Below are positions 2,932 to 54,986 of a DNA stretch of 64,000 bases, in pieces. The DNA is from a virus (taxonomy: Duplodnaviria; Heunggongvirae; Uroviricota; Caudoviricetes). A program made the position numbers and the translations under genes. The stretch lies in IMG/VR virus record IMGVR_UViG_3300031998_000037. The stretch is one strand, 5' to 3'. The notes beneath the pieces were generated by a model, which was given only the letters and a program-made list of their open reading frames with translations, made no database searches and was not told the origin of the DNA. Every line of letters starts with the position of its first letter. Position 1 is the first letter of the stretch.

Positions 2932-3285
2932 ATGAGTAAGTTTATACGTACAGAAACTTATACATATCTGAATGAAGAATATTTTGAAAAGGGCGGCATC
3001 TATTATATCTACAACACTTTTGGCATGGAGTATATCGCTGTATGCACTGGCAAGAAGCCTGATGGTATACATCTTGTAAAAGTTTATAATTTGCCTATAG
3101 AGCAAAAGGACGAGACAGTTATTATACCAGACGATGAGATTATAATGAATGACAGCAATGTTTCATCATTTAAGACCTGTGAGAGAATTGAGCTTAAAGA
3201 AGATACCGACAAGTATGATCGCACAATTTCTTTCTTCTTTAAATTCTCTGCAAAGAAAGACGAGAAAAAGTCTGATGATGAATAA
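2932..3285 (+). CDS. hypothetical protein
   Basis: ORF with RBS AGGAGG. Confidence 0.35.
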   Translation: MSKFIRTETYTYLNEEYFEKGGIYYIYNTFGMEYIAVCTGKKPDGIHLVKVYNLPIEQKDETVIIPDDEIIMNDSNVSSFKTCERIELKEDTDKYDRTISFFFKFSAKKDEKKSDDE

Positions 3286-3884
3286 GAAAGATTGGACAGG
3301 CAATAAGACTTCTGTATTCTCTACATTAGCTGCAAGTAGTCATTCAAAAGATGATAGAGCAAATGACGACTATTATTGTACCCCCCCCCTATGCGGTTGA
3401 GGAACTTCTAAAACGTGAGACATTCAGCACTTATGTTTTAGAGCCTTCCGTTGGCGGAGGGCATATTGCAGAAGTCCTTGAAAGAAACGGTCATAAGATA
3501 CAAGCCTTTGATATTGTAGATCGTGGATATAACAAAACAGAAGTAAGGGACTTCTTAAATGTATCAAAAGAAGATGTCAAGTTTTCCCCTGATATCATCA
3601 CAAATCCTCCATATGCTTTGGCAAAAGAATTTGTTGAACACGCACTTGATATTTCTATGGACAGCACAAAGGTTGCAATGTTTCTTAAAATACAGTTCCT
3701 TGAAAGCAAGAAGCGGTATGAATTATTTAAGAAATATCCACCACGAAAAATATACGTGTTTGTTAACCGCGTTAATTGTGGTAAGAATGGTGTTTTTGGC
3801 AAAGAGTCAAGTGCTGTATGCTATGCATGGTTTGTATGGGTAAAGGGTTATAAAGGCTGTCCACAGGTAGATTGGATAGCATAA
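3275..3884 (+). CDS. phage Dam-family N6-adenine DNA methyltransferase, interrupted by a frameshift at a C9 tract (3381-3389); C8 would give the intact protein
   Basis: N-part 'DDYYCTPP' is in frame 2 and the C-part '...DIITNPPYALAKEF...' in frame 0, joined only across the poly-C; close paralog of the intact ORF 14571-15167. Confidence 0.7.
3381..3389. repeat. poly-C homopolymer (9 nt) inside a methyltransferase gene; candidate slipped-strand phase-variation tract
   Basis: seen in sequence; GC homopolymers this long are otherwise very rare in this AT-rich window. Confidence 0.8.
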
Positions 3885-5871: not shown

Positions 5872-5971
5872 TACACAAATTCCAGTTTATAATATGGCAA
5901 ACGCCATGTTATATAGGCGTGTGATATTCACACAAAACACAATTTCCATAGAAAGGGTATGGTGATACACA

Positions 5972-6634
5972 ATGAAGAACTATTCTTCTAAAATCCGAAG
6001 TCTCCTCGCAAGAGGGACGAAAGCATTAGCATTAACATCTGTCTTACTCGCTACTGTAAGCTGCTCTCACGGTAAGACGGACACAGACACTTCCAGCAGC
6101 AGAAATGAGGTGACAACGACTTGTACAACTTCTACAACGACATCTACCTCTACAACATCAACAACGTCCTCTACGACAACAAGCACCGAGACAACGACGG
6201 CTGCGACGACGATGCCGACAACAACAATGATGACTGTGCAGGAGAATATTCAAGTGACTGAGTCTGTATATGTTGCTCCTGTTCAAGAGTATATTGAACC
6301 TGTGAACAGCAATCTTCCTATTACTGAGCGTGAAAGGGTTTTACTTTGTAATATTGTTGCAAATGAATATGGCTCAGACTGGGTAAGCGTCTATGACAAA
6401 GCTTGTGTTGTGGCAACTGTTATGAACCGTGTAAATAGCTCGCAATTCCCAAATGATATAGAAAGTGTCCTGACACAACCTCGTCAATTTACTGGCTATT
6501 GGGCAAGCGATAGTTATTATAGCACTGTTACAGACAGTTGCATAGAGGCAGTTGATTATTACTTTGCTCATCAAAATGAATTTGGTAATTACTTATATTT
6601 TGAAGGCGATGGGCGAGTGAATTATTTTCATTAA
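5972..6634 (+). CDS. secreted/lipoprotein cell-wall hydrolase (SleB/Hydrolase_2-like) with a Thr/Ser-rich linker
   Basis: signal peptide with a lipobox-like 'LATVSC', ~60-aa T/S low-complexity stretch, and C-terminal 'VVATVMNRVNSSQFPNDIESVLTQPRQFTGYW' that resembles the SleB family. Confidence 0.5.
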   Translation: MKNYSSKIRSLLARGTKALALTSVLLATVSCSHGKTDTDTSSSRNEVTTTCTTSTTTSTSTTSTTSSTTTSTETTTAATTMPTTTMMTVQENIQVTESVYVAPVQEYIEPVNSNLPITERERVLLCNIVANEYGSDWVSVYDKACVVATVMNRVNSSQFPNDIESVLTQPRQFTGYWASDSYYSTVTDSCIEAVDYYFAHQNEFGNYLYFEGDGRVNYFH

Positions 6635-6680
6635 ACAAAAATCCCCGACTTATGTCGGGGAGAAAGGAACACAAAGATGC

Positions 6681-6899
6681 ATGACAGCTAAACGAATGTA
6701 TTTATGGTCTGTGCATTACAGGGACGAAGTTGAACGCAGCATTGAATACTATAACTACATAAATTTGAAACAACCTGTATGGACAAGACCTTTAACAGAG
6801 ATAGAAAAGAAAGAGATTTTCGGTGGCAATCCGAATTACATAAAGAACATAGGCAGAAATGACGGACACGAATGGAGGCTATTGAATGATAATAATTGA
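6681..6899 (+). CDS. hypothetical small protein
   Basis: ORF. Confidence 0.3.
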   Translation: MTAKRMYLWSVHYRDEVERSIEYYNYINLKQPVWTRPLTEIEKKEIFGGNPNYIKNIGRNDGHEWRLLNDNN

Positions 6900-7560
6900 C
6901 AAAGCAGACGTATGCGGCTGGCAATCCGCTATTCGTGGCATGAGAAATCCTATGAATAGTTGGGATAAGTCTGACAGCCTTTATATGACGGTAAATGATA
7001 TTGTAGGGCATCCATGTGATGATGGCATGAAAGAAGAATTTGTTGTTGGCAATGATGACTTAAATTTAATGAAACGTCTTGTTAAAGCTGGCTCAGATCA
7101 CAGCAAGTTTATGCGAATGATAAATGTAACTTGCGATATTACAGCTCCTTTGTATTGGTGGAAGGAATTTGATACTTATAAGGTAGGCACTGTCAGAAAT
7201 AGCTGCTCGACCATGCATAAGATACACGCAAAACAATTTGAAATTGATGATTTTTCTTGTGATAAGCTTGACTCAAAATCATTAAAAGTTCTTCATTATA
7301 TTATTAACTATCTTAATGGCATGAGAGAATGGCACAACAATACTGAACCAAGTTTAAAAAAAGATGCATGGTGGCAAATGATACAACTCCTTCCGAGTTC
7401 CTATAATCAAAAGGCTACAGTTCAGATAAATTATGCTGTGCTTAGAAATATGTATCATAGTCGTCGTACACATAAGCTTGACGAATGGCATACATTTTGC
7501 AAATGGGTTGAAGATTTACCATACAGTGAATTAATTACAATGGAGGATAAGAATGGCTAA
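6886..7560 (+). CDS. divergent ThyX-fold (flavin-dependent thymidylate synthase-like) protein lacking the canonical RHR motif
   Basis: by-eye alignment to ThyX: 'LMKRLVKAGSDHSKFMRMINVTCDITAPLYWWKEF' versus 'L..L.KHGHETPFEH..FTF.V.APIFVARQWFRHR', and C-terminal 'LRNMYHSRRTHKLDEWHTF' versus 'NLRADSHAQWEI'; the RHR position reads DTY/TYK. Confidence 0.4.
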   Translation: MIIIDKADVCGWQSAIRGMRNPMNSWDKSDSLYMTVNDIVGHPCDDGMKEEFVVGNDDLNLMKRLVKAGSDHSKFMRMINVTCDITAPLYWWKEFDTYKVGTVRNSCSTMHKIHAKQFEIDDFSCDKLDSKSLKVLHYIINYLNGMREWHNNTEPSLKKDAWWQMIQLLPSSYNQKATVQINYAVLRNMYHSRRTHKLDEWHTFCKWVEDLPYSELITMEDKNG

Positions 7561-8104
7561 ACCACTAATAGCAATACTTGGTGTTTCAGGCAGCGGCAAG
7601 ACCTCTCTCGTAAATAAGATTAGTAAGAAATATGGGCGCACTGTTTTGAAGTCTTATACAACACGTAAGCCGCGAGAGGGTGACGATACCGATTTAACAT
7701 CGCATGAGTTTATTACAATGCAAGAAGCTGCATTTATTGCAGAAAACGATAAGATTATAGCAAGCAATTGGTTTGATGGTAACTTTTATTTTGCCACTAA
7801 GAGTCAGCTTGATAAGGCAGACCTGTATGTGGTAGATGTTGCAGGATTAAAAGCTCTGTATCGTAACTATTTTGAGCGTCCAATTTTAAGTGTACTTCTT
7901 AGCGTTGACAGTTCTATTGTTGCTGAAAGAATGGCAAAGCGCGGCGATACAAACGAAGCCATTTTTAAACGCTTGCAGCACGACAGCGAAGCCTTTAAAG
8001 ACGCAACAGATTATGTTGATTTTGTATGCACTAACTTTAATCAAGATCAGTGCAATGACAATGTGGAGTTTATAGAGTTTTTATTTCGCAATTATAAGGG
8101 GTAA
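7553..8104 (+). CDS. P-loop nucleoside/deoxynucleoside monophosphate kinase-like protein
   Basis: Walker A 'GVSGSGKTS'; size 183 aa; sits among nucleotide-metabolism genes. Confidence 0.5.
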   Translation: MAKPLIAILGVSGSGKTSLVNKISKKYGRTVLKSYTTRKPREGDDTDLTSHEFITMQEAAFIAENDKIIASNWFDGNFYFATKSQLDKADLYVVDVAGLKALYRNYFERPILSVLLSVDSSIVAERMAKRGDTNEAIFKRLQHDSEAFKDATDYVDFVCTNFNQDQCNDNVEFIEFLFRNYKG

Positions 8105-8107
8105 GAG

Positions 8108-8311
8108 ATGGTAATAGGTTATTTTGACGGCTCATATGAGAGTTTTAATTTGGTACATCAATTAGATGATAGAGAGATACCCTATGAAGCCAAGAACCAG
8201 CAAGACGCACATGAGTTTGGCTTTTATGATTTGCCAATGCTGGTTGTCGGCAATAAGGTTTTGAATTATAAGAGAGCCTTGAAATGGTTAAAGAAACAAA
8301 AGGGGGATTGA
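8108..8311 (+). CDS. hypothetical small protein
   Basis: ORF. Confidence 0.3.
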   Translation: MVIGYFDGSYESFNLVHQLDDREIPYEAKNQQDAHEFGFYDLPMLVVGNKVLNYKRALKWLKKQKGD

Positions 8312-8312
8312 C

Positions 8313-8513
8313 ATGGTTACATTATATACAATAGACTGCCCTAAATGTAAAATTCTTGAAAAAAAACTTAACAATGCAAATATAAACTATCTTATAGTTA
8401 AGGACAGGGATGAAATAAAAGCAAAGGGTATGGACTTAATGCCAGTCTTAGAGGTCGATGATATTAGAATGAATTTTAAGCAAGCTTGCGATTGGGTTAA
8501 CGAGAGGAGCTAA
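8313..8513 (+). CDS. glutaredoxin-like protein (NrdH-like redoxin)
   Basis: 66 aa; CPKC active-site motif near the N-terminus; immediately upstream of nrdD. Confidence 0.55.
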   Translation: MVTLYTIDCPKCKILEKKLNNANINYLIVKDRDEIKAKGMDLMPVLEVDDIRMNFKQACDWVNERS

Positions 8514-8517
8514 GACT

Positions 8518-10479
8518 ATGGCAAAAAAACAAACATCTACTATAAACGTTGGTATTACTTTAGATAAAGATTTTATTACCCAATACAATAAACTTCAAGC
8601 TGAGTACGGCACAGACATAGCAAGACTTAATGGCTTCGGTGACGATCAGCTTTCATATACAGATTTTATTGATAATTTTATTGATGATGATACAATTGCA
8701 GACGTAAGTATTGACGGCAATAGTAATGTCAGAAGAAAAGATATCGTGACACTGATAACAGAAATGCCAAAACCACACAGAAAGCTTCTTGCCTATAATA
8801 AGATTTACTATGAGTTCAAGAAAAAGTATGGCTTTAAGGCAGCAAATACGTGGCTTGAATATGAATGGTCTGGCAAGCTTTATCTCCATGACGCTGACAC
8901 TTCTTCTATGAAGCCTTACTGTTTTGCCTATGACCTTAAAGACCTTGCTGAAAGAGGGTTGTATTTCTTAGGCATAAACAATACTCAGCCAGCACAGCAC
9001 CTTACTACATTTGTTGATTTTGTAAAGGAGTTTATCTCTTTTGCAAGCAACAGAAGTAGCGGTGCGGTAGGCTTACCAAATATAATCCCGTATATGTTCT
9101 ATTATTGGCGCAAAGATGTCAAGTCTGATTATCTCGGAGTAAGAACAAGCGGCAATGAAAAGAAGTATGCTATTCAGAATTTCCAGAGATTTATCTACGC
9201 TGTCAATCAGCCGTGTGTACGTGATGGTCAGCAGTCAGCCTTTACCAATACAACTGTCTTTGATCGTCCTTACTTTGAAGCTCTTTTCGGCGGAACTGAG
9301 TTTCCTGACGGATCGTTTATGATTGATGCCGAAGAAGAAATAATTGAGTTTCAGAAATGGTATATGGAGACAATGGCTGAAATACGCAGCGAGAATATGT
9401 TTACATTCCCCGTATCAACTATTTCTCTTATTCGCAAGAACGGTAAGTTTGAGGATGAGGAATTTGCACATTGGGCAATTCGCCACAATATGAAGTGGTG
9501 CGATAGCAATATGTTTATTGACAAGGACGTAACTTCACTGTCAAATTGTTGTCGCCTTAAATCTCAGATTGATAACCTCGGCTACTTTAACAGTATCGGT
9601 GGAACAGCTTTAAAGGTTGGTTCAGTCAAAGTTGGCACAATCAATCTGGCTCGTATTGCACTTGATACTGAAAATGAAACTGAGTATCTTACAGAACTTA
9701 AAAAGCGTACCCTTATTGACTTAAAGGTACTTGATATAATCAGAGGCATTATAAAGAGAAATGTTGACAAGGGGCTTCTGCCTAACTTTACTTATGGGCT
9801 AATTGACTTTAAACATTTATATAATACAGTGGGCTTTACTGGTGTATATGAGAGCATGAAAAAGTTTGGCTATATCTCACGCGACTTATTCAATAATGTT
9901 TCCTATACAGAACAAGCCGAAAAGTTTGGTAAGAAGATATTCGATACCATACGCAAGACCGCCGATAAGTTCCTTGAAGATAACACTTGCGATTATCTTG
10001 TTTCACTTGAACAATCACCTGTAGAACAAGCGGCAAGCAAACTGATTCGTAAGGACAAGTTCTTCTATCCTGAGTCTGACATCTACGATTTGCCCGTATA
10101 TGGTAATCAGTTTATGCCACTCGGCATCAAGTCAATCTTACAAGAGAGAATAAGGGTTCAGGCTTTATTTGATGGTTTCTGTTCTGGCGGCAGCATACTT
10201 CATGCCAACATTGAAACGCCTTTTGACAGTTATGAAAAGGCATTGGCAATGACAGAGTATGTCGCAGATCAGGGGGTAACATACTTTGCATGGAACACAA
10301 AGATTTCTGCCTGTGAACATAATCACGCATTTCATGGCAAGATTTGCCCAAAGTGTGGTAAGCCTGTAAAAACAGAGTATACCCGTGTAGTCGGTTTTTA
10401 TACGCCGATTGAAAGCTGGTCAAGTGACCGTAAGGCGGAATATAAATTAAGACAATGGGAGGTAGTGAATGAAACTTAA
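8518..10479 (+). CDS. nrdD: anaerobic ribonucleoside-triphosphate reductase (class III RNR)
   Basis: 653 aa; C-terminal Zn-ribbon 'CPKCGKP' followed by the glycyl-radical motif 'TRVVGFYTP'. Confidence 0.75.
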   Translation: MAKKQTSTINVGITLDKDFITQYNKLQAEYGTDIARLNGFGDDQLSYTDFIDNFIDDDTIADVSIDGNSNVRRKDIVTLITEMPKPHRKLLAYNKIYYEFKKKYGFKAANTWLEYEWSGKLYLHDADTSSMKPYCFAYDLKDLAERGLYFLGINNTQPAQHLTTFVDFVKEFISFASNRSSGAVGLPNIIPYMFYYWRKDVKSDYLGVRTSGNEKKYAIQNFQRFIYAVNQPCVRDGQQSAFTNTTVFDRPYFEALFGGTEFPDGSFMIDAEEEIIEFQKWYMETMAEIRSENMFTFPVSTISLIRKNGKFEDEEFAHWAIRHNMKWCDSNMFIDKDVTSLSNCCRLKSQIDNLGYFNSIGGTALKVGSVKVGTINLARIALDTENETEYLTELKKRTLIDLKVLDIIRGIIKRNVDKGLLPNFTYGLIDFKHLYNTVGFTGVYESMKKFGYISRDLFNNVSYTEQAEKFGKKIFDTIRKTADKFLEDNTCDYLVSLEQSPVEQAASKLIRKDKFFYPESDIYDLPVYGNQFMPLGIKSILQERIRVQALFDGFCSGGSILHANIETPFDSYEKALAMTEYVADQGVTYFAWNTKISACEHNHAFHGKICPKCGKPVKTEYTRVVGFYTPIESWSSDRKAEYKLRQWEVVNET

Positions 10480-10942
10480 AGGTTTGATTGACGAGGATTT
10501 TGTGAATTATAAAAAGCCCTCTATGTTTATATCAACCTATACTTGTTCATTCAAATGTTGCGAGGAATGTGGTCAAGCGGTATGCCAAAACTTACCGCTT
10601 GTATCACAGCCTACAATTGAGGTTGATAATGCAGATTTGGCTGTGCGCTACCTTAATAATGATATAACCCATGCTGTTGTTATCGGCGGACTTGAACCAT
10701 TTGACGACTTTGCAGATTTAAACCGTTTTGTCACTTGTTTTCGTTCTTTCTGCAATGACGATATAGTGATCTATACTGGCTACAATGAAGATGAAATAAA
10801 GCATTATGTTGATAAGCTTAGATGGGTTCACAACCTTTACATTAAATATGGCAGATATATCCCTAATCAGCAGCCGCATTATGATGCCGCCCTCGGTGTT
10901 AAGCTTGCAAGCGACAACCAGAAAGGAGTTAAGGTATGCTGA
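10469..10942 (+). CDS. nrdG: anaerobic RNR activating protein (radical SAM)
   Basis: 157 aa directly downstream of nrdD, overlapping it; Cys cluster 'CSFKCCEEC' and 'GGLEP' motif. Confidence 0.6.
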   Translation: MKLKGLIDEDFVNYKKPSMFISTYTCSFKCCEECGQAVCQNLPLVSQPTIEVDNADLAVRYLNNDITHAVVIGGLEPFDDFADLNRFVTCFRSFCNDDIVIYTGYNEDEIKHYVDKLRWVHNLYIKYGRYIPNQQPHYDAALGVKLASDNQKGVKVC

Positions 10943-11330: not shown

Positions 11331-11570
11331 ATGAGCTATTACTGCGAAGTTTGCGGTCATATAGGTGGTCACGCTTACGGCTGCCCAGAAGCACCATCGC
11401 CCAAACCTGTAACATATTGTACCTACTGCGATGAGCCTTTATATATCGGTGATGAAGCTTATCAAGCTGGTAATGATATTTATTGTGCTCAGTGCTGCGG
11501 TAGGATTGAAATAGAAGAGCCTGAAAGAGACTGGGATTTTGAGATAGATAAAAGGAGAGAGAATGAGTAA
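11331..11570 (+). CDS. small zinc-binding protein (multiple CxxC)
   Basis: CEVCGH, CTYCDE, CAQCCG. Confidence 0.35.
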   Translation: MSYYCEVCGHIGGHAYGCPEAPSPKPVTYCTYCDEPLYIGDEAYQAGNDIYCAQCCGRIEIEEPERDWDFEIDKRRENE

Positions 11571-12515
11571 CGAAAATCTAAGAATGGCACGAAAGATTAA
11601 GAATGATGAGTTCTATAGCCGCTATGAAGATATAGAAAAAGAGCTTGTCCATTACAAAGATCAGCTACGCGGCAAGATTGTTTATTGCAACTGTGATATT
11701 CCTGAGAGCAACTTTGTCAAGTTCTTGAATGATGTCAAAGACGAATGGGGCATTCAAGATGTATGGCATACCTCGCTTGACGAGGGTATAAGCTTTGATA
11801 GTGATTATGCGAAAGACTTACTAAGCAAATGTGATGTGGTCATAACAAATCCTCCATTTTCAATCACAAGAGAAAGGTTCGTTCCTATGCTTGAAGAAAG
11901 CGGCAAACAGTTTCTCTTTATAGGCAATCTAAATATGGCAACTATGCGAGAAATATTTCCGCTGATCCGTGACGGCAAACTATGGACAGGCTATACGCAC
12001 CCTAAAGAGTTCCTACAGCCAGATGGCACATACAAAAAGTTTGGTAATTGTTTATGGTGGACTAATATGCCTGTAGAAAAAGAGTTTAGGCTTGACACAT
12101 CAAAAAAGTATTATGGTAATGAAAGTAAATATCCTCACTATGATAATTATGATGCCATTAATGTTGATAGAGTTGCTGATATTCCTTCAGATTATTCAGG
12201 CGTGATTGGCGTACCCGTTACGTTCATTGAACATTATACCCCCACCCCGACAAGATAGGAGGGGACTTCGGCTCAGTATTGTCGGATTTAGAAAGGGAGC
12301 AGACGGCAAAGACCTTCACGCCAACGGAAGATATTATTACGGCAGATACCTTATCGTTATTGGATCATAGATGTGATCTATATAACGAAGTAGGTAGGGG
12401 GGGGTACGACATACATACTTCCATCGCTTGCTCATTAAGAGTCGTTGACGCATTGAACTGTCCAAGTTTAAATAATGAAAAGATATTTAAAAGATTAATG
12501 ATAAGGAGATTATAA
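11563..12515 (+). CDS. N6-adenine DNA methyltransferase (NPPF motif), split by a frameshift at a C5AC4 tract (12239-12248); also carries an in-frame G8 tract (12397-12404)
   Basis: 'CDVVITNPPFS' motif IV. The frame-1 ORF stops at 12258, but frame 0 is open from 12231 to 12515, so a +1 C would fuse them to ~317 aa. Confidence 0.55.
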
Positions 12516-12517
12516 GA

Positions 12518-13044
12518 TTGAGCTTTTCAGAGTCGATAAAGACAAGCTTAGGAGGAGATGAATATTATACTCCTTCTAATGCGGTAGAAATGATTTTACC
12601 TGTGCTGCGCAAGCATAATTTTTCAAAAGTCTGGTGTCCATTTGATACTGCCGAAAGTAATTTTGTTGTAAAACTCAGCAAAGAATTTGAAGTAGTATAC
12701 GGTCATATTTATACTGGACAAGATTTCTTTGAATATGATACCCCCCCGAAGGTGTGGAATGTGTAGTAAGCAATCCGCCATTTAGTAAAAGAAATGATAT
12801 ATTTAAGAGGCTGTTTGAATGGGATATACCTTTTGCTCTTATTATGAATATGAACGGCATCTTTGATAGCAAAGAAAGATATGATTTGTTTAAAGATAAA
12901 CAGGTTGAGTTCTTTATACCAAAGGGTAGAATGAAATTCTTTACGCCTGATGGTGTTACAAAAAACTCGCCTAATTTTCAGAGTATTTATATTTGCAGTA
13001 AATTATTAGATAAACAACTTGAATTTTCTGAAAGTGAATTTTAA
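12518..13044 (+). CDS. phage Dam-family N6-adenine DNA methyltransferase, interrupted at a C7 tract (12741-12747); C8 would restore the frame
   Basis: N-part 'EYYTPSNAVE...YDTPP' (frame 2) and C-part 'ECVVSNPPFSKRNDIF' (frame 1) meet only across the poly-C. Confidence 0.65.
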
Positions 13045-13769
13045 AGGAGATGTAATGAGTAATATACAACTTTTTCAAGGGGACTGCTTGGAACTTATGA
13101 AAGATATACCAGACAAAAGTGTGGATTTAATTTTGACAGATTTACCTTACGGAACAACAGCTTGTAAGTGGGACAGCATAATTCCATTTGATTTACTATG
13201 GGGGGGGGTACGACCGTATCATAAAAGACGATGGTTGCATTGCTTTGTTTGGTAGCGAACCATTTTCTACGATGTTAAGATATAGCAATCTGAAGCATTT
13301 TAAATATGATTGGATATGGGAGAAAGAACAGGGTGCTAATTTTATGCTTTGTAAATATCAGCCCTATAAAGTACATGAAGTCATTTCTATCTTTGGCAAT
13401 AAGAAGATGCGTTATTATCCGCAAATGACCGCTGGCAAACCTTATATATCAGGCAAGGGTACAAGTGGTGATATTACAAACAATGTACCAAAGATACAGA
13501 CAGTTAATTCGGGTACAAGATATCCGCGAAGCATTCAAAAATTTAACACTCAAAAAAATCACTCGGTTCATCCAACTCAGAAGCCAGTGCCACTACTTGA
13601 ATACCTTATTAAGACCTATACAATTGAGGGTGACACAGTATTAGATAGTTGCATGGGCAGTGGCAGCACGGGCGTAGCTGCCGTCAATACAAATCGCAAC
13701 TTTATTGGCATGGAACTTGATGAGAAATATTTTCAGATTGCACAAACCAGAATTAAGGAGGCAACATAA
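13019..13769 (+). CDS. beta-class N6A/N4C DNA methyltransferase, interrupted at a G9 tract (13200-13208); G8 would restore the frame
   Basis: 'LILTDLPYG' motif IV first, then 'HPTQKP', then 'CMGSGSTG' motif I at the C-terminus. N-part 'FDLLWGG' is in frame 2 and C-part 'GGGYDRIIKDDG' in frame 0. Confidence 0.7.
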
Positions 13770-14011
13770 TGAAAGACTATTTCGGGCATAAGATAAATAT
13801 AGGCGACATTGTTCTATACAACGAACGCGGCTCAAAAGGATATCGCTCTTCCTTTAGTGAAGGAACTGTGATTGAATTTGTTGGCAAAACAAAAGTAAAA
13901 ATTAAAAACGATTCAAGCTTTTGGGCAGCAACTAAATATCCAGAAAACACAGTTGATCTTACAGCTCTTGATATAAGACAAAAGGTAACACTTAATGAAG
14001 ATAGCGTTTGA
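13769..14011 (+). CDS. hypothetical protein
   Basis: ORF. Confidence 0.3.
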   Translation: MKDYFGHKINIGDIVLYNERGSKGYRSSFSEGTVIEFVGKTKVKIKNDSSFWAATKYPENTVDLTALDIRQKVTLNEDSV

Positions 14012-14570
14012 TTTAGATAGTGTTTGCGTAAATACAGTTGACGCGATTATAGAGTACATAAATGAGCGAGTGCCTGTAAATCTGAAAGTTGATGATATCA
14101 CTTCCTACAATATTGAATCAGCTTTACCAGAGCAATTTCAATGGATTGTAGACGCAGGTTTCCGTGACTCAAAAATGTGGAAGAAAGTAAAACTGTTGCC
14201 GCGATGTGCCGAAATCATGGAGAAGCTTTACAAAGAGGGCTATGAGATTTGGTTTGCCACATCATCGCTGCCTGAGAATATGCGCAAGAAGATAAAACAC
14301 TTGGCTCGTAATATGCAATTCTTTCCTGAGCATTATGTGTGGCAGCACACTATCAATATTCAGGACAAGTATTTGCTTAATGTTGATGTGCTTGTAGACG
14401 ATTGCCTGAAACACGCAATTCACCCTGATAGATTGTATTGGTCTATTATCATGGACTACCCGTGGAATAGATTATCTGAGCCTGTAGAACGCACAGTACG
14501 AGCATATGATTGGGATTGGATATATGAAAAGATACATATGATAGACAACATACTAAAGGAGGATAAGTAA
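13995..14570 (+). CDS. HAD-family 5'(3')-deoxyribonucleotidase-like (NT5C-type)
   Basis: N-terminal 'IAFDLDSVC' (DxD nucleophile motif) and a later 'LVDDC'. Confidence 0.45.
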   Translation: MKIAFDLDSVCVNTVDAIIEYINERVPVNLKVDDITSYNIESALPEQFQWIVDAGFRDSKMWKKVKLLPRCAEIMEKLYKEGYEIWFATSSLPENMRKKIKHLARNMQFFPEHYVWQHTINIQDKYLLNVDVLVDDCLKHAIHPDRLYWSIIMDYPWNRLSEPVERTVRAYDWDWIYEKIHMIDNILKEDK

Positions 14571-15167
14571 ATGGGCTTAACCGCAGCGAAGCTTGCTGGC
14601 AGTGATCCGACAAGAGGCAGAATGAAGAACGATTATTATGCTACCCCTCCCATTGCGACTGAACTTCTTTTGAAAGAAGTGAAACTATATGATGATACTA
14701 TTTTAGAACCAGCAGCAGGTGAAGGTCATATTGTTAAAGTGCTGAAAGAATTTTACCCTTATAATGAGATAACAGCTAATGATTTAGTTTACCGCAGTAG
14801 TCGTATAGGCATTGATGTGAACGGCGGCATAGATTTCCTTACATATGAACCACACCGCAAATTTGATACTATCATTACAAACCCACCTTTTAATCAGGCA
14901 AAAGAGTTTATTGAGAAAGCATTGACGCTTGCAAATCATTACGTCATTATATTTGCCAAGCTTCAATTTCTGGAGACTGTTGAACGCCGCAAGCTGTTTG
15001 ACGAATATCCACCTAAGTATGTTTATGTACATAGCCGTCGTGTTAGCCCGTATATAAATGGTGATCCTGTAGATGAAAAGGGTAAGCCGTGGGCAAGTCC
15101 TATGGCGTTTGCTTGGTTTGTGTGGGAGATAGATTATGAAGGAGAGACAACATTAAGATGGTTATAA
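14571..15167 (+). CDS. phage Dam-family N6-adenine DNA methyltransferase (intact)
   Basis: 'DYYATPP' and 'TIITNPPFNQAKEF'; paralog of the 3275-3884 gene. Confidence 0.7.
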   Translation: MGLTAAKLAGSDPTRGRMKNDYYATPPIATELLLKEVKLYDDTILEPAAGEGHIVKVLKEFYPYNEITANDLVYRSSRIGIDVNGGIDFLTYEPHRKFDTIITNPPFNQAKEFIEKALTLANHYVIIFAKLQFLETVERRKLFDEYPPKYVYVHSRRVSPYINGDPVDEKGKPWASPMAFAWFVWEIDYEGETTLRWL

Positions 15168-15439
15168 AAGGATTTAGCCCATATATAAAAGAAATTCCTG
15201 AGTTTGCTGATCCCGAAGGCTCTATAAGATATTGCAATGTTGATATTATGCATGAACAGATTGAGTGTAAACATAATGAGGTCACGTTCTATGATAATAT
15301 TTGCAAAGACAATACCTTTATAATTGAGGACAAGTCCCCTGATTATTCAGGATATCAATGCCGTTACTTTAAAGGTTACGTTCTTAAAGAAAAGGATGGT
15401 GATTATTCATGGTGGATGAAGCCGATACAAAAACAGTAA
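15158..15439 (+). CDS. hypothetical Cys-rich protein
   Basis: ORF. Confidence 0.3.
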   Translation: MVIKGFSPYIKEIPEFADPEGSIRYCNVDIMHEQIECKHNEVTFYDNICKDNTFIIEDKSPDYSGYQCRYFKGYVLKEKDGDYSWWMKPIQKQ

Positions 15440-15550
15440 TATGTACTAACGAGGATTGTAAATATAATAGCTCTTGCATCTGTACCGCAGATGTTATTTG
15501 GATAAGCAAAACTGGGAATTGTCGCACATTTAAAACAAAGGAGAACAATA

Positions 15551-16045
15551 ATGAATAAGTTTGAGAAAGTAAGTTACGATCAGTTTGAAAAGGATTTAAG
15601 TGGCGACGCTTGGGTTGAGCCTATAATAAACATTATGTATGAGCAAATCAAATTGCCACAGAGAGCCACAAAGTTCTCTGCTGGCTATGATATATACGCT
15701 CCATATGATTTAGTAATACCGCCTAAAGGCACGGTCAAAGTTCCTACAGGTATTAGGGTTCAGCTTGATGATGATAAGTTCCTCGCTGTTTATCCGCGTT
15801 CAGGATTAGGCTTTAAGTTTAAGATGCAGTTATATAATAGTGTCGGCATTATTGACAGCGACTATTACAATTCAGATAATGAGGGGCATATCTGGTGTAA
15901 GTTCTATAATGACAGTCCTGACGGTAAGACGATTACTATTAAGCAAGGCGAAGCAATGTGTCAAGGTATTATTCAGCAATATTTTAAGATAAATGGTGAT
16001 GAGACAGACGGTGTACGCAATGGGGGCTTTGGCAGCACAACGTAA
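15551..16045 (+). CDS. dut: dUTP diphosphatase (trimeric dUTPase)
   Basis: motifs 'ATKFSAGYDIYA', 'YPRSGLG', 'GIIDSDY', 'RNGGFGST'. Confidence 0.85.
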   Translation: MNKFEKVSYDQFEKDLSGDAWVEPIINIMYEQIKLPQRATKFSAGYDIYAPYDLVIPPKGTVKVPTGIRVQLDDDKFLAVYPRSGLGFKFKMQLYNSVGIIDSDYYNSDNEGHIWCKFYNDSPDGKTITIKQGEAMCQGIIQQYFKINGDETDGVRNGGFGSTT

Positions 16046-16988: not shown

Positions 16989-18062
16989 TCAAAAATTTTC
17001 TCTTTGTTTATCACGTTCAGCCTTTAACATAGCCCTAAAATAACTGTAACGGTTAGCGATATTTTGCTGTTCAGATATAGCATTAAAGTGAGTATATTGT
17101 TCCTGTAAATAATGATACCTTGCAAACCCAATGCCAAGAGGATGTTCAGGCATATCCGTAGAAAATACAATTGCAAGCAGACTTTCCATTTCTTTTACTG
17201 AAAATTCATTATTACAAGCACCTGAGAAAAAGTCAAGTTCAACATCTTGTGTCTCTATTTCTTCTTTAATCTTGTCAACATCAATTAAATCTGAAAATCC
17301 CTCAAAGATAGGAATTTGTTTTTGAGCTGGTTCATTTTTAGTGATAGTAAACACAATAGATATCCACCTACCACCTGCACCTGTCTTGCCGCGCTCATAG
17401 GTATAGCTAATGTCTGTAAGTTCCTTTAAAGCCTTTTGACAGCTATCGAGTACATACTTTTTAAATAAAGACCAACCATTTTTATTTGAATATTCAGTTT
17501 CGGCAATACCGAGCAATTCTCTAAGTTCTTTTACAGGTATCTCTCTCTTCCCTATATTCTCGTATTGTTTTAAAATTTCATACATTCTAATTTGATTTGC
17601 TGATTTAAGGATCAGTGCATTCCAAAGTTCGTACTTAAAATATCTCTCTTTAAAATCAAACATTAAAGGCAATGCTTTATCGTGGGCATCTATCTGAACA
17701 TACCATTCGCCGTCCTCATTCTTATCAACTTCACATTCTTTAAAAAGCTGAAATCCAGAATATCCGCCACTCTCTTTTGGTATATTGACAACCTTACAAA
17801 GTAAGCTATTAGTGCTTGATTTAAGTTGCTGAATATTCATTCTACTAAACCCCATGATCTTCTGGAAGTCAGACAGTGGGAATCGAACAATTCTTGTTGA
17901 CTCATCTCTGGGGTTTATCTTAGATAGATAAATCGAAAAAAAGCGTAACTCTTGTAAGGATAGATTATTGGCTCTAATCTCGTTAAGGATATTTCTTTTT
18001 TCTACTATAGCTCCCTCATAAATAGTAGACATATATATCACCTCAATATTATTATAACACAC
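16989..18062 (-). CDS. rep: plasmid-type replication initiator (RepA_N-like)
   Basis: 357 aa whose N-terminal region resembles Firmicute theta-plasmid RepA_N; iterons lie immediately upstream. Confidence 0.6.
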   Translation of the reverse strand: MCYNNIEVIYMSTIYEGAIVEKRNILNEIRANNLSLQELRFFSIYLSKINPRDESTRIVRFPLSDFQKIMGFSRMNIQQLKSSTNSLLCKVVNIPKESGGYSGFQLFKECEVDKNEDGEWYVQIDAHDKALPLMFDFKERYFKYELWNALILKSANQIRMYEILKQYENIGKREIPVKELRELLGIAETEYSNKNGWSLFKKYVLDSCQKALKELTDISYTYERGKTGAGGRWISIVFTITKNEPAQKQIPIFEGFSDLIDVDKIKEEIETQDVELDFFSGACNNEFSVKEMESLLAIVFSTDMPEHPLGIGFARYHYLQEQYTHFNAISEQQNIANRYSYFRAMLKAERDKQRENF

Positions 18063-18664: not shown

Positions 18665-19867
18665 TTACGAGCAATGATTATTCCTATAACTATCCATCAA
18701 TTCCTGAATAGTTTTAAGTTCCTCAGCAGGGTTCATATCCAGCAATCTTTTGATTGCGGTATCAACGGCTTGAACTTCCTTGATAATCTTTTTGCTTTGA
18801 GCGATCTTGCCAGACTTATCCTTCTGAGCATCGTCAAGTCCCTTTTCGGCAGAGAAGATAGTATTCGTAAATATCTTCTTTACCTCACTATTTTGCTTTT
18901 GAGTTTTGAGATCAATGTCGCGGTCAAGCTGTTCAAGAGCTGCATTGTACTTAGCAACACTCTTTTCAATACTTGCCTTACGGGATTCAAGCTCAGGCGA
19001 TTGTTCTATATCAAGCTCCTTGTTGATATTTGCAAGCTCCTCATTTGCTTGTAAAAGCCTTCCATTATAATACATACGCGAGGTTTTATCTTTTGAAAGA
19101 GAAGTGTTTGTCTTTGAAATAATATTCTTAGCCTGTTTTGCAAAAGCGAGTGTGTGCTCGATAGCATATTTCTTAGTCTCAGGATCAGCGTTGTCCGCAG
19201 CCTTTAGAATATCATTGGCATAGTTCTGATATTCTTCTGGGAGCTGCGCAAGTGAAGCAGCCGTGTTGATATCAATAGCATCCGCATAGAGCAATTCCTT
19301 TAAAGGATTGATAAGCTCAGACGTAATGGCGATAAGCTTATTAGCCTGACGTTCACTGACATTAAAAGCCTGTGAAACATACTCTTTAAATTTTTGAGCC
19401 GCCTCTCGTTCAGCGGTTTCATCAAACTGCTTTATCTTAGCGAGAAAGCCTTCAATGATTTGAACCTTTTCTTCAATGCTATATTCTCTTGTTTCACTAT
19501 TGGCAAAGAAAAGCATTTTGAGAATTTCGAGCTGAGAAAGATTGCTTCTTACAGTCGCCTTAATCTTATCGCGTCCGAGGTACTTGACAGCCTTTGTGCG
19601 GCGTTCTCCAGATATGAGCAAGTATTTCGTAGGCTCTATCTTTGCAACCACAATATTATGCAGCAAGCCGTTCTCTTTGATATTCTCAGCAAGTTCTGCA
19701 ATGCCCTCGTCAGAGTCGCCCATATTGAAAATGTTATCCTGATTAAAAACGATTTGATCTATGGGGATAATATCAGTTGTCTCGATAGACTCCTGTTCCT
19801 TTTTGACGCTATCAGCAAGCTCATTAAAGCGGCTCAACGCCTTGTCGGTGTTTAACTTCTTAGCCAT
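18665..19867 (-). CDS. parB: ParB-family partition protein
   Basis: N-terminal ParB/Srx-like box ending in 'GERRTKA'; long helical C-terminus; translationally coupled to parA. Confidence 0.7.
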   Translation of the reverse strand: MAKKLNTDKALSRFNELADSVKKEQESIETTDIIPIDQIVFNQDNIFNMGDSDEGIAELAENIKENGLLHNIVVAKIEPTKYLLISGERRTKAVKYLGRDKIKATVRSNLSQLEILKMLFFANSETREYSIEEKVQIIEGFLAKIKQFDETAEREAAQKFKEYVSQAFNVSERQANKLIAITSELINPLKELLYADAIDINTAASLAQLPEEYQNYANDILKAADNADPETKKYAIEHTLAFAKQAKNIISKTNTSLSKDKTSRMYYNGRLLQANEELANINKELDIEQSPELESRKASIEKSVAKYNAALEQLDRDIDLKTQKQNSEVKKIFTNTIFSAEKGLDDAQKDKSGKIAQSKKIIKEVQAVDTAIKRLLDMNPAEELKTIQELMDSYRNNHCS

Positions 19868-20664
19868 TAATTAACGCCCCCTAAAATGATATTTTCAAGC
19901 TCCTCAGCGACAGCCAGATAATCAGCCGTGACTTTTTCATTCTTGGCATAATTTATCAATGGGTTGTGATCCGTAAGGCTCTTCTCTACAATGGTCGTCT
20001 TTCTGATCTCGGTATTAAAGAAATGGTATGATGTAAGATTAGCCTTGAATTGTTCAAGGTAAAAGTTCTGAGCTGCCGTGTTCTCCTTCTTTGTAAAAAG
20101 CAGCCCAGCGATTTTGAGATTTGGGTTGACATATTGCTGAATGTTTGTGATAAATTCATTCATGGCGAAGATACTGTCAATGCCGTACTCAGTCGCCTCG
20201 CAAGGCAGCACGGTATAGTTACTTGCTGTGAGGGCGTTTGTGGTTAAATTATTACGTGCAGGTGGGCAGTCGATAAAAACATATTCATATTCATCCTGTA
20301 TCTCTGTAAGCTTATTCTTTAAAATAAACTCTCTTGCTATTGGCAAAGCTGATAATTCAGTATCAGCCTTATCCAGATTGACGTTAGACGGCAGCAAATC
20401 AAGCCCGTCAATGTCAGTACCTATGGTAGCTTTACGGACGCTTAAATCGCCACATATGACATTGTAGACGCTTACCTCGTCTTTGCTGAGAAACTTTCCG
20501 AGGTAAGTTGTGGCATTTGCTTGCGGATCAAGGTCAACAAGTAGCACCTTTTTGTTTTTAATTTTAGCAAATATTGCAGCAAGGTTTACACTCGCCGTGG
20601 TTTTGCCAGCACCACCTTTACGGTTCAATAAAGAAATCGTAATCATTAATTTTGCTCCTTTCAC
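19867..20664 (-). CDS. parA: ParA/Soj-family partition ATPase
   Basis: deviant Walker A 'NRKGGAGKTT', 'VLLVDLDPQ'. Confidence 0.85.
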   Translation of the reverse strand: MKGAKLMITISLLNRKGGAGKTTASVNLAAIFAKIKNKKVLLVDLDPQANATTYLGKFLSKDEVSVYNVICGDLSVRKATIGTDIDGLDLLPSNVNLDKADTELSALPIAREFILKNKLTEIQDEYEYVFIDCPPARNNLTTNALTASNYTVLPCEATEYGIDSIFAMNEFITNIQQYVNPNLKIAGLLFTKKENTAAQNFYLEQFKANLTSYHFFNTEIRKTTIVEKSLTDHNPLINYAKNEKVTADYLAVAEELENIILGGVN

Positions 20665-49094: not shown

Positions 49095-50621
49095 TCACTT
49101 ATAATCTGAATTTGAATTAGGGTTGTCTACAGTGTTTTCAGAAGGTGAGTCCGTTTGTGGTCTGCCTCCCTCGTTACCGACTTCGCCGTTACTAAGCGTA
49201 TTACTACTTATAAGTGGGCGGTTGTATATATCAACGCCGCATTTGAGAATTGTGTTCTCCAGATAGCTTGCCGTATATGCATCTATCGGTTCTTGACCAA
49301 GTGCGGCAGCGTACCATAATTTCGACGGCAGCCCATACATTGCTGATTTCTGTAGTCTGTTTGCAACCTCATCTTTATTGAAACTATATTGTTCAAGAAA
49401 ATAGATTTCAAATAAATAATCATCATGTATCGACATTTCTCTTTGATATTTTACATTAAATACTCTTTCAATTTGACGTAGCAACTTCATCATCATAGTC
49501 GCATCAACTATGAGTGACAATTCAATTACCTTATAAGTAGGATTTGCACCTACGCCAAACAAAAGAGGGGATATACCAACATTATTGAATAAGTCTTTAG
49601 TCGCATCTTCCGTATAGTCTTTTTGAGCGTTAGTTGTATCTTTGAGAGTAATGCCTTGTGCCTTAAATGGATTGACGGCAATTCCAATTCCTTCTGGAAC
49701 TGCGCCAGCTATCTGCGTCCAATACTTTTGAATTTGTTCAAATGAAAGGGCTGGGTTGCCGTCGCTATCAGTCTCAACAGTATAATTGATAAGTTTATAG
49801 TTATCAAGAATAGCACCGTCCTTCTGAATTTCTTCATAAGTCTGAAGGTCTATGATAGCCTTGAAACAACCAGCAAGAGGTGGAATGATAAAGGGATATT
49901 CCTCATCAAACTTTACACAAATTTGTTTCTTAGGAATAAACCACCGCAGCGTTCTATCACCAGTAATACCCTTTTCTTCATCACCTTTATATAATGAATA
50001 TGCTTTTATAAATTCTCTACCATAAGAGGGGAGCAGTGCCTTAGTCTTTTTAGTGTCAAAATAACTAAGATCAAATGCAAATCGCCACACTCCGTTTTCA
50101 ACAGCCGCTAACTTACAGAACTTATGCAATAGAGGTTTTAAAAAGAAGCTGCGCTTATCCTCAATCATAAGACCATAATACACGCCATCTACAAGTGTGC
50201 GCAACATAACTTGTGGGTTAATATCCTTAAACTTAAAACGACTGCATTGTAAAGCATAGTTGATATATTCTTGCTCAAAATCATCTTTATCAATATTCTT
50301 TATATTTGCAATGGGGCGAATAACATAATTGTTAGTTAGGATTGTTGCAAGCATTATAATTGCTCTGCGGTAATGCGGCGAGATAGCAAAATAAAAACGG
50401 CTTACCTCTCGCAATACTTCTTCTGATCTGGGATTTGTAGGATCAGCTAATGCACCAAGAATAATCTTGCGTGGGTATTTTTTAAGGAACACGCACACTT
50501 CATCCATACTTTGTTTCAGATCAAGAAGCACATCTGAACGTAGCTTTGCAAATCTTTTGAGACTATATATCTCTTTTAATTCATCTCTTTCTTCCAAATA
50601 ATTCACCCCTTTCTTAATCAT
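49095..50621 (-). CDS. putative portal protein
   Basis: 508 aa immediately downstream of the large terminase. Confidence 0.45.
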   Translation of the reverse strand: MIKKGVNYLEERDELKEIYSLKRFAKLRSDVLLDLKQSMDEVCVFLKKYPRKIILGALADPTNPRSEEVLREVSRFYFAISPHYRRAIIMLATILTNNYVIRPIANIKNIDKDDFEQEYINYALQCSRFKFKDINPQVMLRTLVDGVYYGLMIEDKRSFFLKPLLHKFCKLAAVENGVWRFAFDLSYFDTKKTKALLPSYGREFIKAYSLYKGDEEKGITGDRTLRWFIPKKQICVKFDEEYPFIIPPLAGCFKAIIDLQTYEEIQKDGAILDNYKLINYTVETDSDGNPALSFEQIQKYWTQIAGAVPEGIGIAVNPFKAQGITLKDTTNAQKDYTEDATKDLFNNVGISPLLFGVGANPTYKVIELSLIVDATMMMKLLRQIERVFNVKYQREMSIHDDYLFEIYFLEQYSFNKDEVANRLQKSAMYGLPSKLWYAAALGQEPIDAYTASYLENTILKCGVDIYNRPLISSNTLSNGEVGNEGGRPQTDSPSENTVDNPNSNSDYK

Positions 50622-52470
50622 AACGTTTGGCTGGTCGAGCCATAAATAGTGTTGTTATATCCTGAACAGGCTGTTGTTTAACAACACTGCCTCTTCTTAA
50701 TTCATATAACCTATGTGCTAAAAGTATCAACACATAAAATCTATCATCGTGCATACGTGTTTCTTTTTCCTTAGATAGAGCATAATTTACAGTTGTCTTT
50801 TCAGCGTTTTGTGTTTTATGAATTGATGTTACTTCTGTTTTCATTAGGTCAATTTGAACTAATGCCATTTTTTCATCATCCGATAGCTCATGGTTTTCCC
50901 ATGTCTCATTACCATCTTTATCAACGCCAGTTATAACCTTTAATGAATCTTGCCCTGAGTATTCATAAGGGAATCTGATTACACCCAAATCCATTAACTC
51001 AATCATTTCTTCAACCATTTGAGTTCTGTATTTCTTTGGGCTAATAACTCTTAATTTATCACAAGCATTAGGGTAACGGTTGACAAAGCTTTGATACAAC
51101 TCATTGGTCTTATCAATAAAGCCTCGATGCTTCTTTCCAAATTTATCTGTATAATCATTCAGCAAGCCGTCAGCATATGTACTTACGCCGCCGCCAGCCG
51201 CACCAGCATCAACATTCAAAACATCTATATATTCATAATCTGGGTTTTGACCGTTATAGCATATTATCAATTTGCGCAGCTCTTCTAATTGCCTATTGGA
51301 GTCCAGCTTGTATTTTTGCTTTGTGAAAGTATCTACCATATTAACGCAATTTATTATATCTCCGCACCATCCAAGCTCTTTATCCTTATATATATTCATA
51401 ACACCCACAATTGAATTATCGTTTGTTCGCGCTGGATCAAACGCCAAAGCTATTCTGCTATTGGGCTGCCATTTAAGTGTAGGCAAATAGAACTTTTCAT
51501 TTCTGCGAATTACGTCCCACTTTATTATCTGACTACTTCCGCCGTCAGCAGTAGGCTGGTTGAAATACTCTCTAAGGGCTTTTTCTTTATTGCTCTTCAA
51601 AGCTGTCTCAACCTTGCTTCTTGTAAGCAGAGGAATATATGGCTCACCATTCATGTATGTCTGAATTGCAACATCGCATATCATATCACATACAAAATAG
51701 TCCCTATCTCCAGCAAGCATTCTCTTAGCATAATATTTGTAATGCTTATAGAATGTCTTATCCATCTGATCTTGCGATGATGCATATACCAGTTGTGTAG
51801 GTACTCTTCTCTTTTCAGTCTCAGGGTTAAAGTCATCTTCGGTAGAAGTTATAAAGTCTGTATTTTGCATAGCAAATGCTTCACAAACACTTATAAGCTC
51901 GTCAGAACAGAATGCGGCTTCATCAAAGAAAACAAGAGTTGCACGGCGGCTTCTTGCGGAGTCTGGTTTACTGTTCAGGGTATGAATTGTACTGCCATTA
52001 TAAAACTCTACTGAATAACCTGCTGGGTTGTGGCTAAAGCCTGTTTTATTCGTTGCAGATTTTGTTGTTTCCTTTTCAACAATATCCTTTAATGAACGAA
52101 TAGAGGCAGCCGTCTTTCCCATGCGTGTAACAATTTCTTCTATCTTTGTAAAGGTTTCCTTAGACTGATCTCCGACAGACGATATGATATATATAGCCTG
52201 ATTTTCATAAAGGACTGCTTTGAGTATCATAAATATTGCGCCCAAAAATGATTTACCAAAGTTACGACTACAGCACCATACACTATGTTGGGCATTCCAT
52301 GTACTTTGCAATATCCATTTCTGCGCATCAATCAAACGAATGCCGAGTAAGTCCTCACACGCAATACAAGGATTTCGCCTATAAAAAGCTATAGACTCAG
52401 CATCTAATTCATATATTCTTTTTTTTATCGGTGTGAGAATGATTTTACGCCTCTTCATCACTATCACCAT
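50614..52470 (-). CDS. terL: terminase large subunit
   Basis: 618 aa; Walker-B-like 'TLVFFDEAAF'; position in front of the portal. Confidence 0.65.
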   Translation of the reverse strand: MVIVMKRRKIILTPIKKRIYELDAESIAFYRRNPCIACEDLLGIRLIDAQKWILQSTWNAQHSVWCCSRNFGKSFLGAIFMILKAVLYENQAIYIISSVGDQSKETFTKIEEIVTRMGKTAASIRSLKDIVEKETTKSATNKTGFSHNPAGYSVEFYNGSTIHTLNSKPDSARSRRATLVFFDEAAFCSDELISVCEAFAMQNTDFITSTEDDFNPETEKRRVPTQLVYASSQDQMDKTFYKHYKYYAKRMLAGDRDYFVCDMICDVAIQTYMNGEPYIPLLTRSKVETALKSNKEKALREYFNQPTADGGSSQIIKWDVIRRNEKFYLPTLKWQPNSRIALAFDPARTNDNSIVGVMNIYKDKELGWCGDIINCVNMVDTFTKQKYKLDSNRQLEELRKLIICYNGQNPDYEYIDVLNVDAGAAGGGVSTYADGLLNDYTDKFGKKHRGFIDKTNELYQSFVNRYPNACDKLRVISPKKYRTQMVEEMIELMDLGVIRFPYEYSGQDSLKVITGVDKDGNETWENHELSDDEKMALVQIDLMKTEVTSIHKTQNAEKTTVNYALSKEKETRMHDDRFYVLILLAHRLYELRRGSVVKQQPVQDITTLFMARPAKRYD

Positions 52471-54706: not shown

Positions 54707-54934
54707 AATTCAAAAAAAACGGTGTAGGGGTTCGCACACCGCAAAGCGAAAATTGTATCATTCGCTCATGCCCACGTACTTTGCATACGTTTAGACGTAA
54801 ATCGGGGTTATGAGCTATACAGCAGTTTTATGTCCTCTGCAAGACATGGTGACGATTGCGAGACTTGAACTCAGCATTGCGCCCGTGAAAGGGGCGTGTC
54901 CTACCTTTAGACGAAACCGCCACAATAATGCGCA

Positions 54935-54956: not shown

Positions 54957-54986
54957 GTATAATGCGCATTGTTGCAAGCCGAAAAT

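Follow-up and report, generated by a model that had tools for sequence, protein, structure and literature searches.

A length-variable C tract in an orphan methyltransferase gene of a rumen phage-plasmid is a probable contingency locus

A split methyltransferase gene at a C7 tract

We analysed a 64,000-nucleotide stretch of DNA (hereafter the window) from the Caudoviricetes record IMGVR_UViG_3300031998_000037 of IMG/VR, which appears to belong to a rumen phage-plasmid. In one of its genes, here named M2 and predicted to encode a small orphan DNA methyltransferase, a run of seven cytosines breaks the reading frame, and relatives of the element carry the same gene with eight cytosines and an intact frame. 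We propose that this C7 run is a slippage-prone simple-sequence repeat that makes M2 a contingency locus on a phage methylase, a reading to which we assign a probability of about 0.78. M2 combines several features of such loci, namely an over-long tract within an open reading frame (ORF), polymorphism in the length of this tract, and a toggle between full-length and truncated products. The positions of M2, of the other methylase genes and of their tracts are given in Table 1.

Table 1 Methylase genes, homopolymer tracts and element marker genes of the window (positions count from its first nucleotide; aa, amino acids; nt, nucleotides)
Feature	Position	Strand	Remarks
M0, paralogous small methyltransferase gene	3275..3884	+	DYYCTPP / YAVEELL ... 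NPPY; frameshifted by C9, C8 would be ON
C9 tract	3381-3389		In M0; OFF
M1, EcoRI-methylase-family gene	11563..12370	+	PF13651 2e-63; frameshifted at C5-A-C4 (12239-12248)
G8 tract	12397..12404	+	Intergenic, between M1 and M2; 27 nt past the M1 stop, 113 nt ahead of the M2 start
M2, small N6-adenine-type DNA methyltransferase gene (predicted)	12518..13044	+	175 aa in frame; split in the window
M2 OFF-state N-terminal product	12518..12766	+	82 aa; ends ahead of catalytic motif IV
C7 tract	12741..12747	+	Thr-Pro-Pro (ACC CCC CC-) of M2; C8 ON, C7 and C9 OFF; OFF in the window
M2 C-terminal remainder	12754..13044	+	96-aa ORF from GTG; NPPF present, N-terminal half absent
M3, PF01555 N4/N6 methyltransferase gene	13057..13769	+	Frameshifted by G9 (Trp-Gly-Gly); G8 would be ON
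G9 tract	13200-13208		In M3; OFF
M4, intact paralogue	14571..15167	+	phrog_799 7e-59; Thr-Pro-Pro codons at 14643-14651 = ACC CCT CCC
Rep3	16989..18062	-	
ParB	18665..19867	-	
ParA/CbiA	19867..20664	-	
Large terminase TerL	50614..52470	-	phrog_2

On the plus strand, positions 12730-12760 read tgaatatgat-a-CCCCCCC-gaaggtgtggaatgtgtag, with gaagg directly after the seven cytosines. The upstream ORF begins at a TTG codon, has an AAGGAG Shine-Dalgarno sequence 9 nt upstream, and ends in frame 2 as ...FEYDTPPKVWNV (in a longer read, ...GQDFFEYDTPPKVWNV), its stop being the sixth codon past the tract. After the tract, frame 1 reads (G)VECVVSNPPFSKRNDIF... and is open as far as 13044. Both the split by the C7 run and this exchange of frames had been described in an earlier note on this DNA, and the 82-aa and 96-aa ORFs confirm them at the exact coordinates. 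Adding one C to the tract yields a single ORF of 175 aa with the junction ...DFFEYDTPPEGVECVVSNPPFSKR... (in a longer read, ...FEYDTPPEGVECVVSNPPFSKR...). The coding capacity of M2 thus toggles with tract length, from 175 aa at C8 to 82 + 96 aa at C7 and 89 + 103 aa at C9. The tract is positioned in the loop ahead of the beta-strand bearing NPPF, so that the catalytic motif is missing from the 82-aa OFF product. This same 82-aa ORF was reported by gene callers in three relatives (L007, L009 and L014).

The sequence and modelled structure of M2 point to a small NPPF N6-adenine-type DNA methyltransferase. The repaired protein, read with C8, matched phrog_799 'DNA methyltransferase' (1e-27) and, barely over the curated cut-off of 26.4 bits, the EcoRI_methylase family PF13651 (26.8 bits, 4e-06). 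The earlier note had called the gene Dam-like, an assignment that we do not retain: the profile search returned no match to the Dam family (PF02086, MethyltransfD12) at E<=0.01, and the best matches were phrog_799 and, weakly, PF13651. When a protein collection was searched with the repaired M2, 554 homologues were retrieved, nearly all of them 174-177 aa long, to which M2 aligned with no gap at the tract and among which the tract-encoded Pro-Pro is nearly invariant. The homologues at 55-85% identity were all contiguous and gap-free against the C8 reading. Directly downstream of the tract, the sequence SNPPFS was invariant in 57 homologues and conforms to catalytic motif IV, (D/N/S)PP(Y/F).

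The AF2 model of M2 (pLDDT 84.7, pTM 0.82) displayed the class I S-adenosylmethionine-methyltransferase (Rossmann-like) fold. Its best Foldseek matches in the PDB were TrmM (an m6A tRNA methyltransferase), the PacII methylase and ZCCHC4, all with probability 1.0 and TM-scores of only 0.42-0.52, and a sequence search of the PDB gave marginal matches only. Among cultured phages, relatives of M2 at 30-61% identity and annotated as 'DNA methyltransferase' were found in phages of Streptococcus, Campylobacter, Listeria, Prochlorococcus, Thermus and Fusobacterium, and nearly all of these are single contiguous matches.

Tract length varies among close relatives

Relatives were retrieved as contigs, by exact protein identity of neighbouring genes, from metagenome assemblies of the rumen and other livestock guts, with one record labelled 'bovine metagenome'. 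They were 93-100% identical to the window across 11400-15300. A C8 tract together with a called 175-aa gene was found in nine of these contigs (L013, L015, L016, L017 and L027-L031), C7 was found in the window clone and L020, and C9 in L010. These C8 alleles, which occur naturally, specify the unbroken 175-aa protein and, with the gap-free homologues described above, support the expectation of the earlier note that C8 would be the ON state. The orthologue of M2 in a sister lineage (L021-L026) displayed C8, C9 and C11, the in-frame lengths there being C7 or C10. In another phage context, a 78%-identical orthologue (L034, positions 1051-1060) had C10 at the same site, in frame and encoding APPP. 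Altogether, C7, C8, C9, C10 and C11 occur at the orthologous M2 site.

A 69%-identical orthologue (L035) displayed the ordinary codons GCT CCA CCT at the M2 site and a C9 run on its N-terminal YYSPP motif, while a neighbouring Dam-family (PF02086) gene of the same contig bears G7; the tracts of L035 lie at 4357-4363 and 6056-6064. Tracts of G or C in methylase genes are thus also borne by these more distant phages, and the C10 run of L034 adjoins a Lar restriction-alleviation gene. Megablast of positions 11400-15300 against GenBank phages gave no match. Exact-flank pattern scans for the tract loci in IMG/VR gave none either, nor did tract-locus scans of the JGI metagenome collection, although the protein look-up did retrieve a JGI contig; this collection thus contributed no tract lengths.

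The length of the tracts changes while their flanks stay nearly the same. Four global alignments, each pairing a strain with the window (2.0-3.9 kb and 54-110 substitutions apiece), contained 13 indel events, all of which fell within the four tracts of the 3.9-kb methylase cassette, which are those of M1, the M1-M2 spacer, M2 and M3. Contigs L017 (C8) and L020 (C7) were 99.2% identical and had gaps at two tracts only. Within the sister lineage, L022 (C8) and L026 (C9) displayed 0 mismatches over 1548 nt, L024 (C11) and L026 also displayed 0 mismatches, and L022 and L024 were separated by 1 mismatch over 3241 nt. Contigs with 0-2 substitutions across 1.5-3.2 kb therefore differ in tract length only, indicating that length evolves much faster than point substitutions accumulate. 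Lengths of 7, 8, 9, 10 and 11 among otherwise near-identical relatives are what the phase variation implied by the earlier note predicts.

These differences could have a technical origin, in which case the true length would be C8 and C7 would be a homopolymer miscall of sequencing or assembly. The three tracts that split ORFs (C9 at 3381, C7 at 12741 and G9 at 13200) are each one base off an in-frame length of eight, as miscalls would give. However, the window states C7, G9, G8 and C5AC4 recur, at 100% identity over 3.9 kb, in the assemblies of SRR9008936, SRR9008937, JGI 3300028914 and ERZ27257204. Identical lengths at all tract sites were thus obtained in separate short-read assemblies of at least four datasets, which argues against random miscalls. 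Other clones gave a reproducible C8 in five samples (L027-L031), and contig names of the MEGAHIT style (k141, k127) point to Illumina sequencing, where the consensus is seldom wrong at 7-9-mers. We judge an artefact of this kind to be very improbable.

It could also be that the C7 allele needs no repair to be expressed, a -1 slip or RNA polymerase stutter giving the full-length enzyme. The sequence C CCC CCG (12742-12748) is formally a -1 slippery heptamer of the type X XXY YYZ, and a slip there would yield exactly the C8 protein; as for stutter, transcriptional slippage on runs of at least eight is established for A/T runs. Yet no downstream stimulatory structure was found (fold z -0.28), relatives with C8 encode the protein without any shift, and a shift in the opposite direction would be required at the other tracts, +1 in the case of C9 and G9. 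Furthermore, lengths of 7, 8, 9, 10 and 11 all occur, so that no shift-requiring length is conserved. Programmed -1 ribosomal frameshifting was set aside, as there is no stimulator and the arrangement that would require the shift is not conserved. Recoding as the explanation of the C7 allele is very unlikely in our view, while a low-level leak of read-through product from this allele is possible.

Tracts of G and C are confined to methylase genes

Five methylase genes of the element carry slippage-prone G/C tracts, and the earlier note had covered one of them. In the window clone, four of these genes (M0-M3) are OFF and M4 is ON. The note had also stated that the paralogs of M2 are contiguous over the equivalent segment. 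This holds for the segment itself, but three paralogues are frameshifted at other tracts.

The distribution of these tracts is far from random. The window (37.7% G+C) contains no G/C run of six and only four longer ones, and all of its runs of at least six lie inside or between methylase genes. Likewise, the G/C runs of at least seven in the 20-kb loci of relatives were all found in a methylase gene or in the M1-M2 spacer. A lone C7 is unremarkable by chance, given a mean of 0.75 C7/G7 7-mers per window in dinucleotide shuffles; the four tracts together hold nine such 7-mers, a number that was reached in 0 of 100 shuffles.

The tracts make use of the rarest codons at conserved Thr-Pro-Pro and Trp-Gly-Gly motifs. 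Those of M0, M1, M2 and M4 encode Thr-Pro-Pro (ACC CCC CCN), and the G tract encodes Trp-Gly-Gly (TGG GGG GGN). In the other long ORFs (17,350 codons), CCC accounts for 9.7% of Pro, ACC for 10.5% of Thr and GGG for 7.6% of Gly, and CCC-CCC was used in none of the 10 other Pro-Pro pairs.

Each of the other methylase genes displayed its own set of alleles. The repaired M0 matched phrog_799 at 1e-64, with DDYYCTPP / YAVEELL... in frame at C8; its frameshift is masked in the ORF list by an ATG at 3351 that sits in the downstream frame. At this site, L008 and L011 have C8 followed by A, where the window has C9 followed by TA; they are out of frame too, and C9 would be their ON state. Just two extra alleles of the tract at 3381 were seen, as an exact look-up with the 117-aa product upstream of M0 returned no record. 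In M1, one extra C in the interrupted tract of the window results in 231 aa rather than 268 aa. The ON alleles of this gene were C4AC4 (268 aa; L013, L015, L020 and L044), C9 (L016, L027 and L028) and C4AC7 (269 aa; L010). The repaired M3 matched PF01555 (6e-29) and phrog_67 (3e-78), with LLWGG / YDRIIKDDG in frame at G8. Its site reads G7 (OFF) in L010, L017 and L020, an interrupted but in-frame GGGAGGGG in L013, and is free of a tract in L016.

Meanwhile, the Thr-Pro-Pro codons of M4 look like a tract that was fixed ON by a synonymous change: L006, L008, L011 and L012 have an uninterrupted C8 at this site and encode a protein identical to the M4 of the window. Interrupted in-frame versions, such as ACC CCT CCC in M4 and GGGAGGGG in M3 of L013, are expected when a switch becomes fixed ON. 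Selection for switchability would be expected to produce tracts that recur in unrelated methylase families and at varied positions, as well as such interrupted, 'locked' versions.

The intergenic tract also varied in length, from G4 (L013) through G8 to G9 (L010) and G10 (L020), between fully conserved flanks. A role as promoter or terminator was considered but gained no support: a consensus scan was empty at the tract, and no obvious terminator contains it. The best -35/-10 candidate found by eye lies about 40 nt downstream, which places the tract outside a promoter spacer. A 14-mer, GGGGGGGGTACGAC, is common to this tract and to the G run within M3 at 13200. We did not accept this 14-nt identity as a recombination scar, as the evidence is weak and the M3 copy reads TATGAC in other strains.

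Switching or decay

The main rival of a contingency locus is non-adaptive decay, by which M2 would be a pseudogene, its C run a mutational weak spot and the length differences neutral drift. Such decay would fit the loss of frame in four of the five methylase genes of the window clone and the truncated forms carried by about half of the contigs in the protein clusters. The wholesale gain and loss of the cassette between strains would fit it too, suggesting that these genes are dispensable. It fits poorly with rarest-codon tracts that occupy conserved motifs of five or more distinct methylase genes and whose position varies among orthologues, and with the retention of the tract across 69-86% diverged lineages, where intact C8 and C10 alleles are common. 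Moreover, additional stops or indels are absent from the OFF alleles outside the tracts. This is unlike the decayed, split M2 homologue of Streptococcus phage CHPC929, which displayed several frameshifts and no G/C run of at least five; we had considered that phage as a cultured example of tract switching and rejected it as a case of ordinary decay. On balance, we consider decay an unlikely explanation of the M2 tract.

Some observations do weigh against a contingency locus. Neutral drift would leave four of five methylases OFF about 20% of the time, (2/3)^4. A census of the protein clusters counted approximately 18 full-length and 23 truncated contigs (roughly 56% truncated, against 67% expected without selection), an ON fraction only moderately over the one-third expected with no selection. 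The datasets behind the four or more assemblies with identical OFF lengths may not represent separate populations. The recurrence of these lengths would also fit a pseudogene state that is effectively fixed and changes slowly. Finally, no restriction or Type IV gene is linked to the element here.

Proposed mechanism and benefit of switching

If M2 is a contingency locus, as we favour, strand slippage in replication would add or remove cytosines in its tract. Lengths of C8, and also of C5 or C11, would allow read-through and a complete M2 enzyme, and lengths of C7 or C9 would end translation ahead of the catalytic NPPF. M2 would accordingly be OFF in the window clone and one slippage step from ON. 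The same device would operate in the four other methyltransferase genes of the element, and tracts that vary independently between strains would allow a population to harbour active methylases in numerous combinations. The sites at which the element DNA is methylated would then differ among progeny or lysogens. From the polymorphism between samples, we infer that switching within one population is frequent and reversible.

The pay-off of such variation would lie in conflicting demands on the modification. Methylation would guard the element against restriction-modification. It may also make the DNA a target of modification-dependent (Type IV) nucleases and impose a cost on the lysogen. The benefit would hence be bet-hedging of the phage's own DNA methylation. 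Alternatively, the benefit may be phasevarion-type regulation in lysogens.

We put forward a broader version of this proposal as a tentative idea, somewhat more likely to be wrong than right. With up to five orphan methylases, each with its own G/C tract, a burst or lysogen population might comprise up to 2^5 methylation 'phasotypes'. These could serve as combinatorial epigenetic bet-hedging across the restriction-modification and modification-dependent defences of different hosts, or reprogram the lysogen as a mobile phasevarion. Selection would have favoured the tracts repeatedly on the Pro-Pro/Gly-Gly motifs of unrelated methylase families.

Comparison with known switching systems

Repeat-driven switching of methylases is textbook knowledge for a few bacterial pathogens, in which it serves gene regulation. 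These phase-variable methyltransferases (phasevarions) include the mod genes of Haemophilus, Neisseria, Helicobacter and Streptococcus suis, and the poly-G tract of Campylobacter cj0031. As in these genes, a repeat within a methyltransferase ORF would slip in M2 and set the gene ON or OFF by frameshift, with several independently switching methylases per genome. Phasevarions, however, are chromosomal parts of restriction-modification systems (Type I, III or IIG) and have documented effects on the regulation of host genes. The genes described here are small stand-alone methylases on a phage-plasmid, with no adjacent res, hsdS or hsdR, and their expected substrate is the DNA of the element itself. 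The neighbours of the methylases are other methylases, DUF7205, NT5C and dUTPase, and gene calls among them included no res, hsdR or hsdS. The locus is therefore not a phasevarion in the strict sense, which calls for a Type I/III restriction-modification context.

Contingency loci of phages have been recognised only recently, in receptor-binding proteins of Campylobacter phages and in agt of T2. The A tract of agt in T2/T4 is a contingency locus for which a trade-off against TgvAB/McrBC was shown experimentally in T2 (Gomez, Barrick, Waters, bioRxiv 10.1101/2025.10.21.683753). Both in agt and in the present case, slippage would occur at a homopolymer in a DNA-modification gene of a phage and give mixed progeny, and the logic that we propose is the same, with some defences needing and others attacking the modification. 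The two differ in that the modification here is methylation and not glucosylation, that G/C tracts in an AT-rich genome take the place of A tracts, and that five modification genes are involved and not one. The present carrier is also a temperate rumen phage-plasmid, known here from its sequence. As cited in PMC12823448, the poly-G tracts of Campylobacter Fletchervirus phages are contingency loci in receptor-binding proteins (Sorensen et al. 2021), unlike the tracts described here, which reside in methylases.

As a member of the phrog_799 family, M2 resembles the orphan anti-restriction methyltransferases of phages (30-61% identity, the same length and the same NPPF motif). It differs from its cultured homologues, nearly all of which are contiguous, in being split at a slippage tract. 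In the literature, of which our coverage was incomplete, we found no description of repeat switching in the phrog_799 family, nor of repeat-switched orphan methylases on phages or phage-plasmids. If our interpretation is right, it would extend the contingency idea to orphan anti-restriction methylases, to a commensal rumen ecosystem and to a multi-gene, combinatorial form carried by a phage-plasmid. It would also have implications for annotation, as a methylase gene that is 'frameshifted' in a phage genome from a metagenome may be a switch rather than an error or a pseudogene.

The element and its genomic context

The gene content of the window is that of a predicted phage-plasmid from the rumen, about 100 kb in size. 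A full set of phage structural genes, with the large terminase and a 2007-aa ORF among the virion genes encoded by the minus strand, is found on one replicon with Rep3, ParB and ParA, and this combination of phage structural and packaging genes with plasmid functions leads us to classify the element as a phage-plasmid. Related contigs reach 99.8 kb, and the element is present in many rumen metagenomes. A TerL of 93% identity was found in a 122-kb contig binned in an 'Eubacteriales bacterium' metagenome-assembled genome, and one of 82% identity in a 'Bacteroidota' metagenome-assembled genome. Host assignment from these matches is weak, binning of mobile elements being unreliable.

The slot that holds the methylases, between a 79-aa gene and DUF7205, is modular and contains none, one or three methylases depending on the strain. 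L006 and L012 are without M1-M3, L008 has a different M3 (a 259-aa PF01555 allele) and L015 is without M3. In L036 the slot is occupied by other small genes, one of which has a C9 run.

The window also contains a large nucleotide-metabolism block (4290-10942 and 13995-16045) that comprises a class V aminotransferase, a kinase, NrdD and an activase-like gene, an NT5C 5'-nucleotidase and a dUTPase. Within this block, a 224-aa ORF (6886-7560) matches by position a Thy1-like (faint) gene of a relative. The window further encodes an SPFH/Band-7 protein (1931-2920) and, on the minus strand, three tRNA genes (Glu-ttc, Met-cat and Ile-gat, 54847-55492). A match to the Rfam '6A RNA' motif was found at 55186-55236, with 48.7 bits against a gathering score of 41.2.

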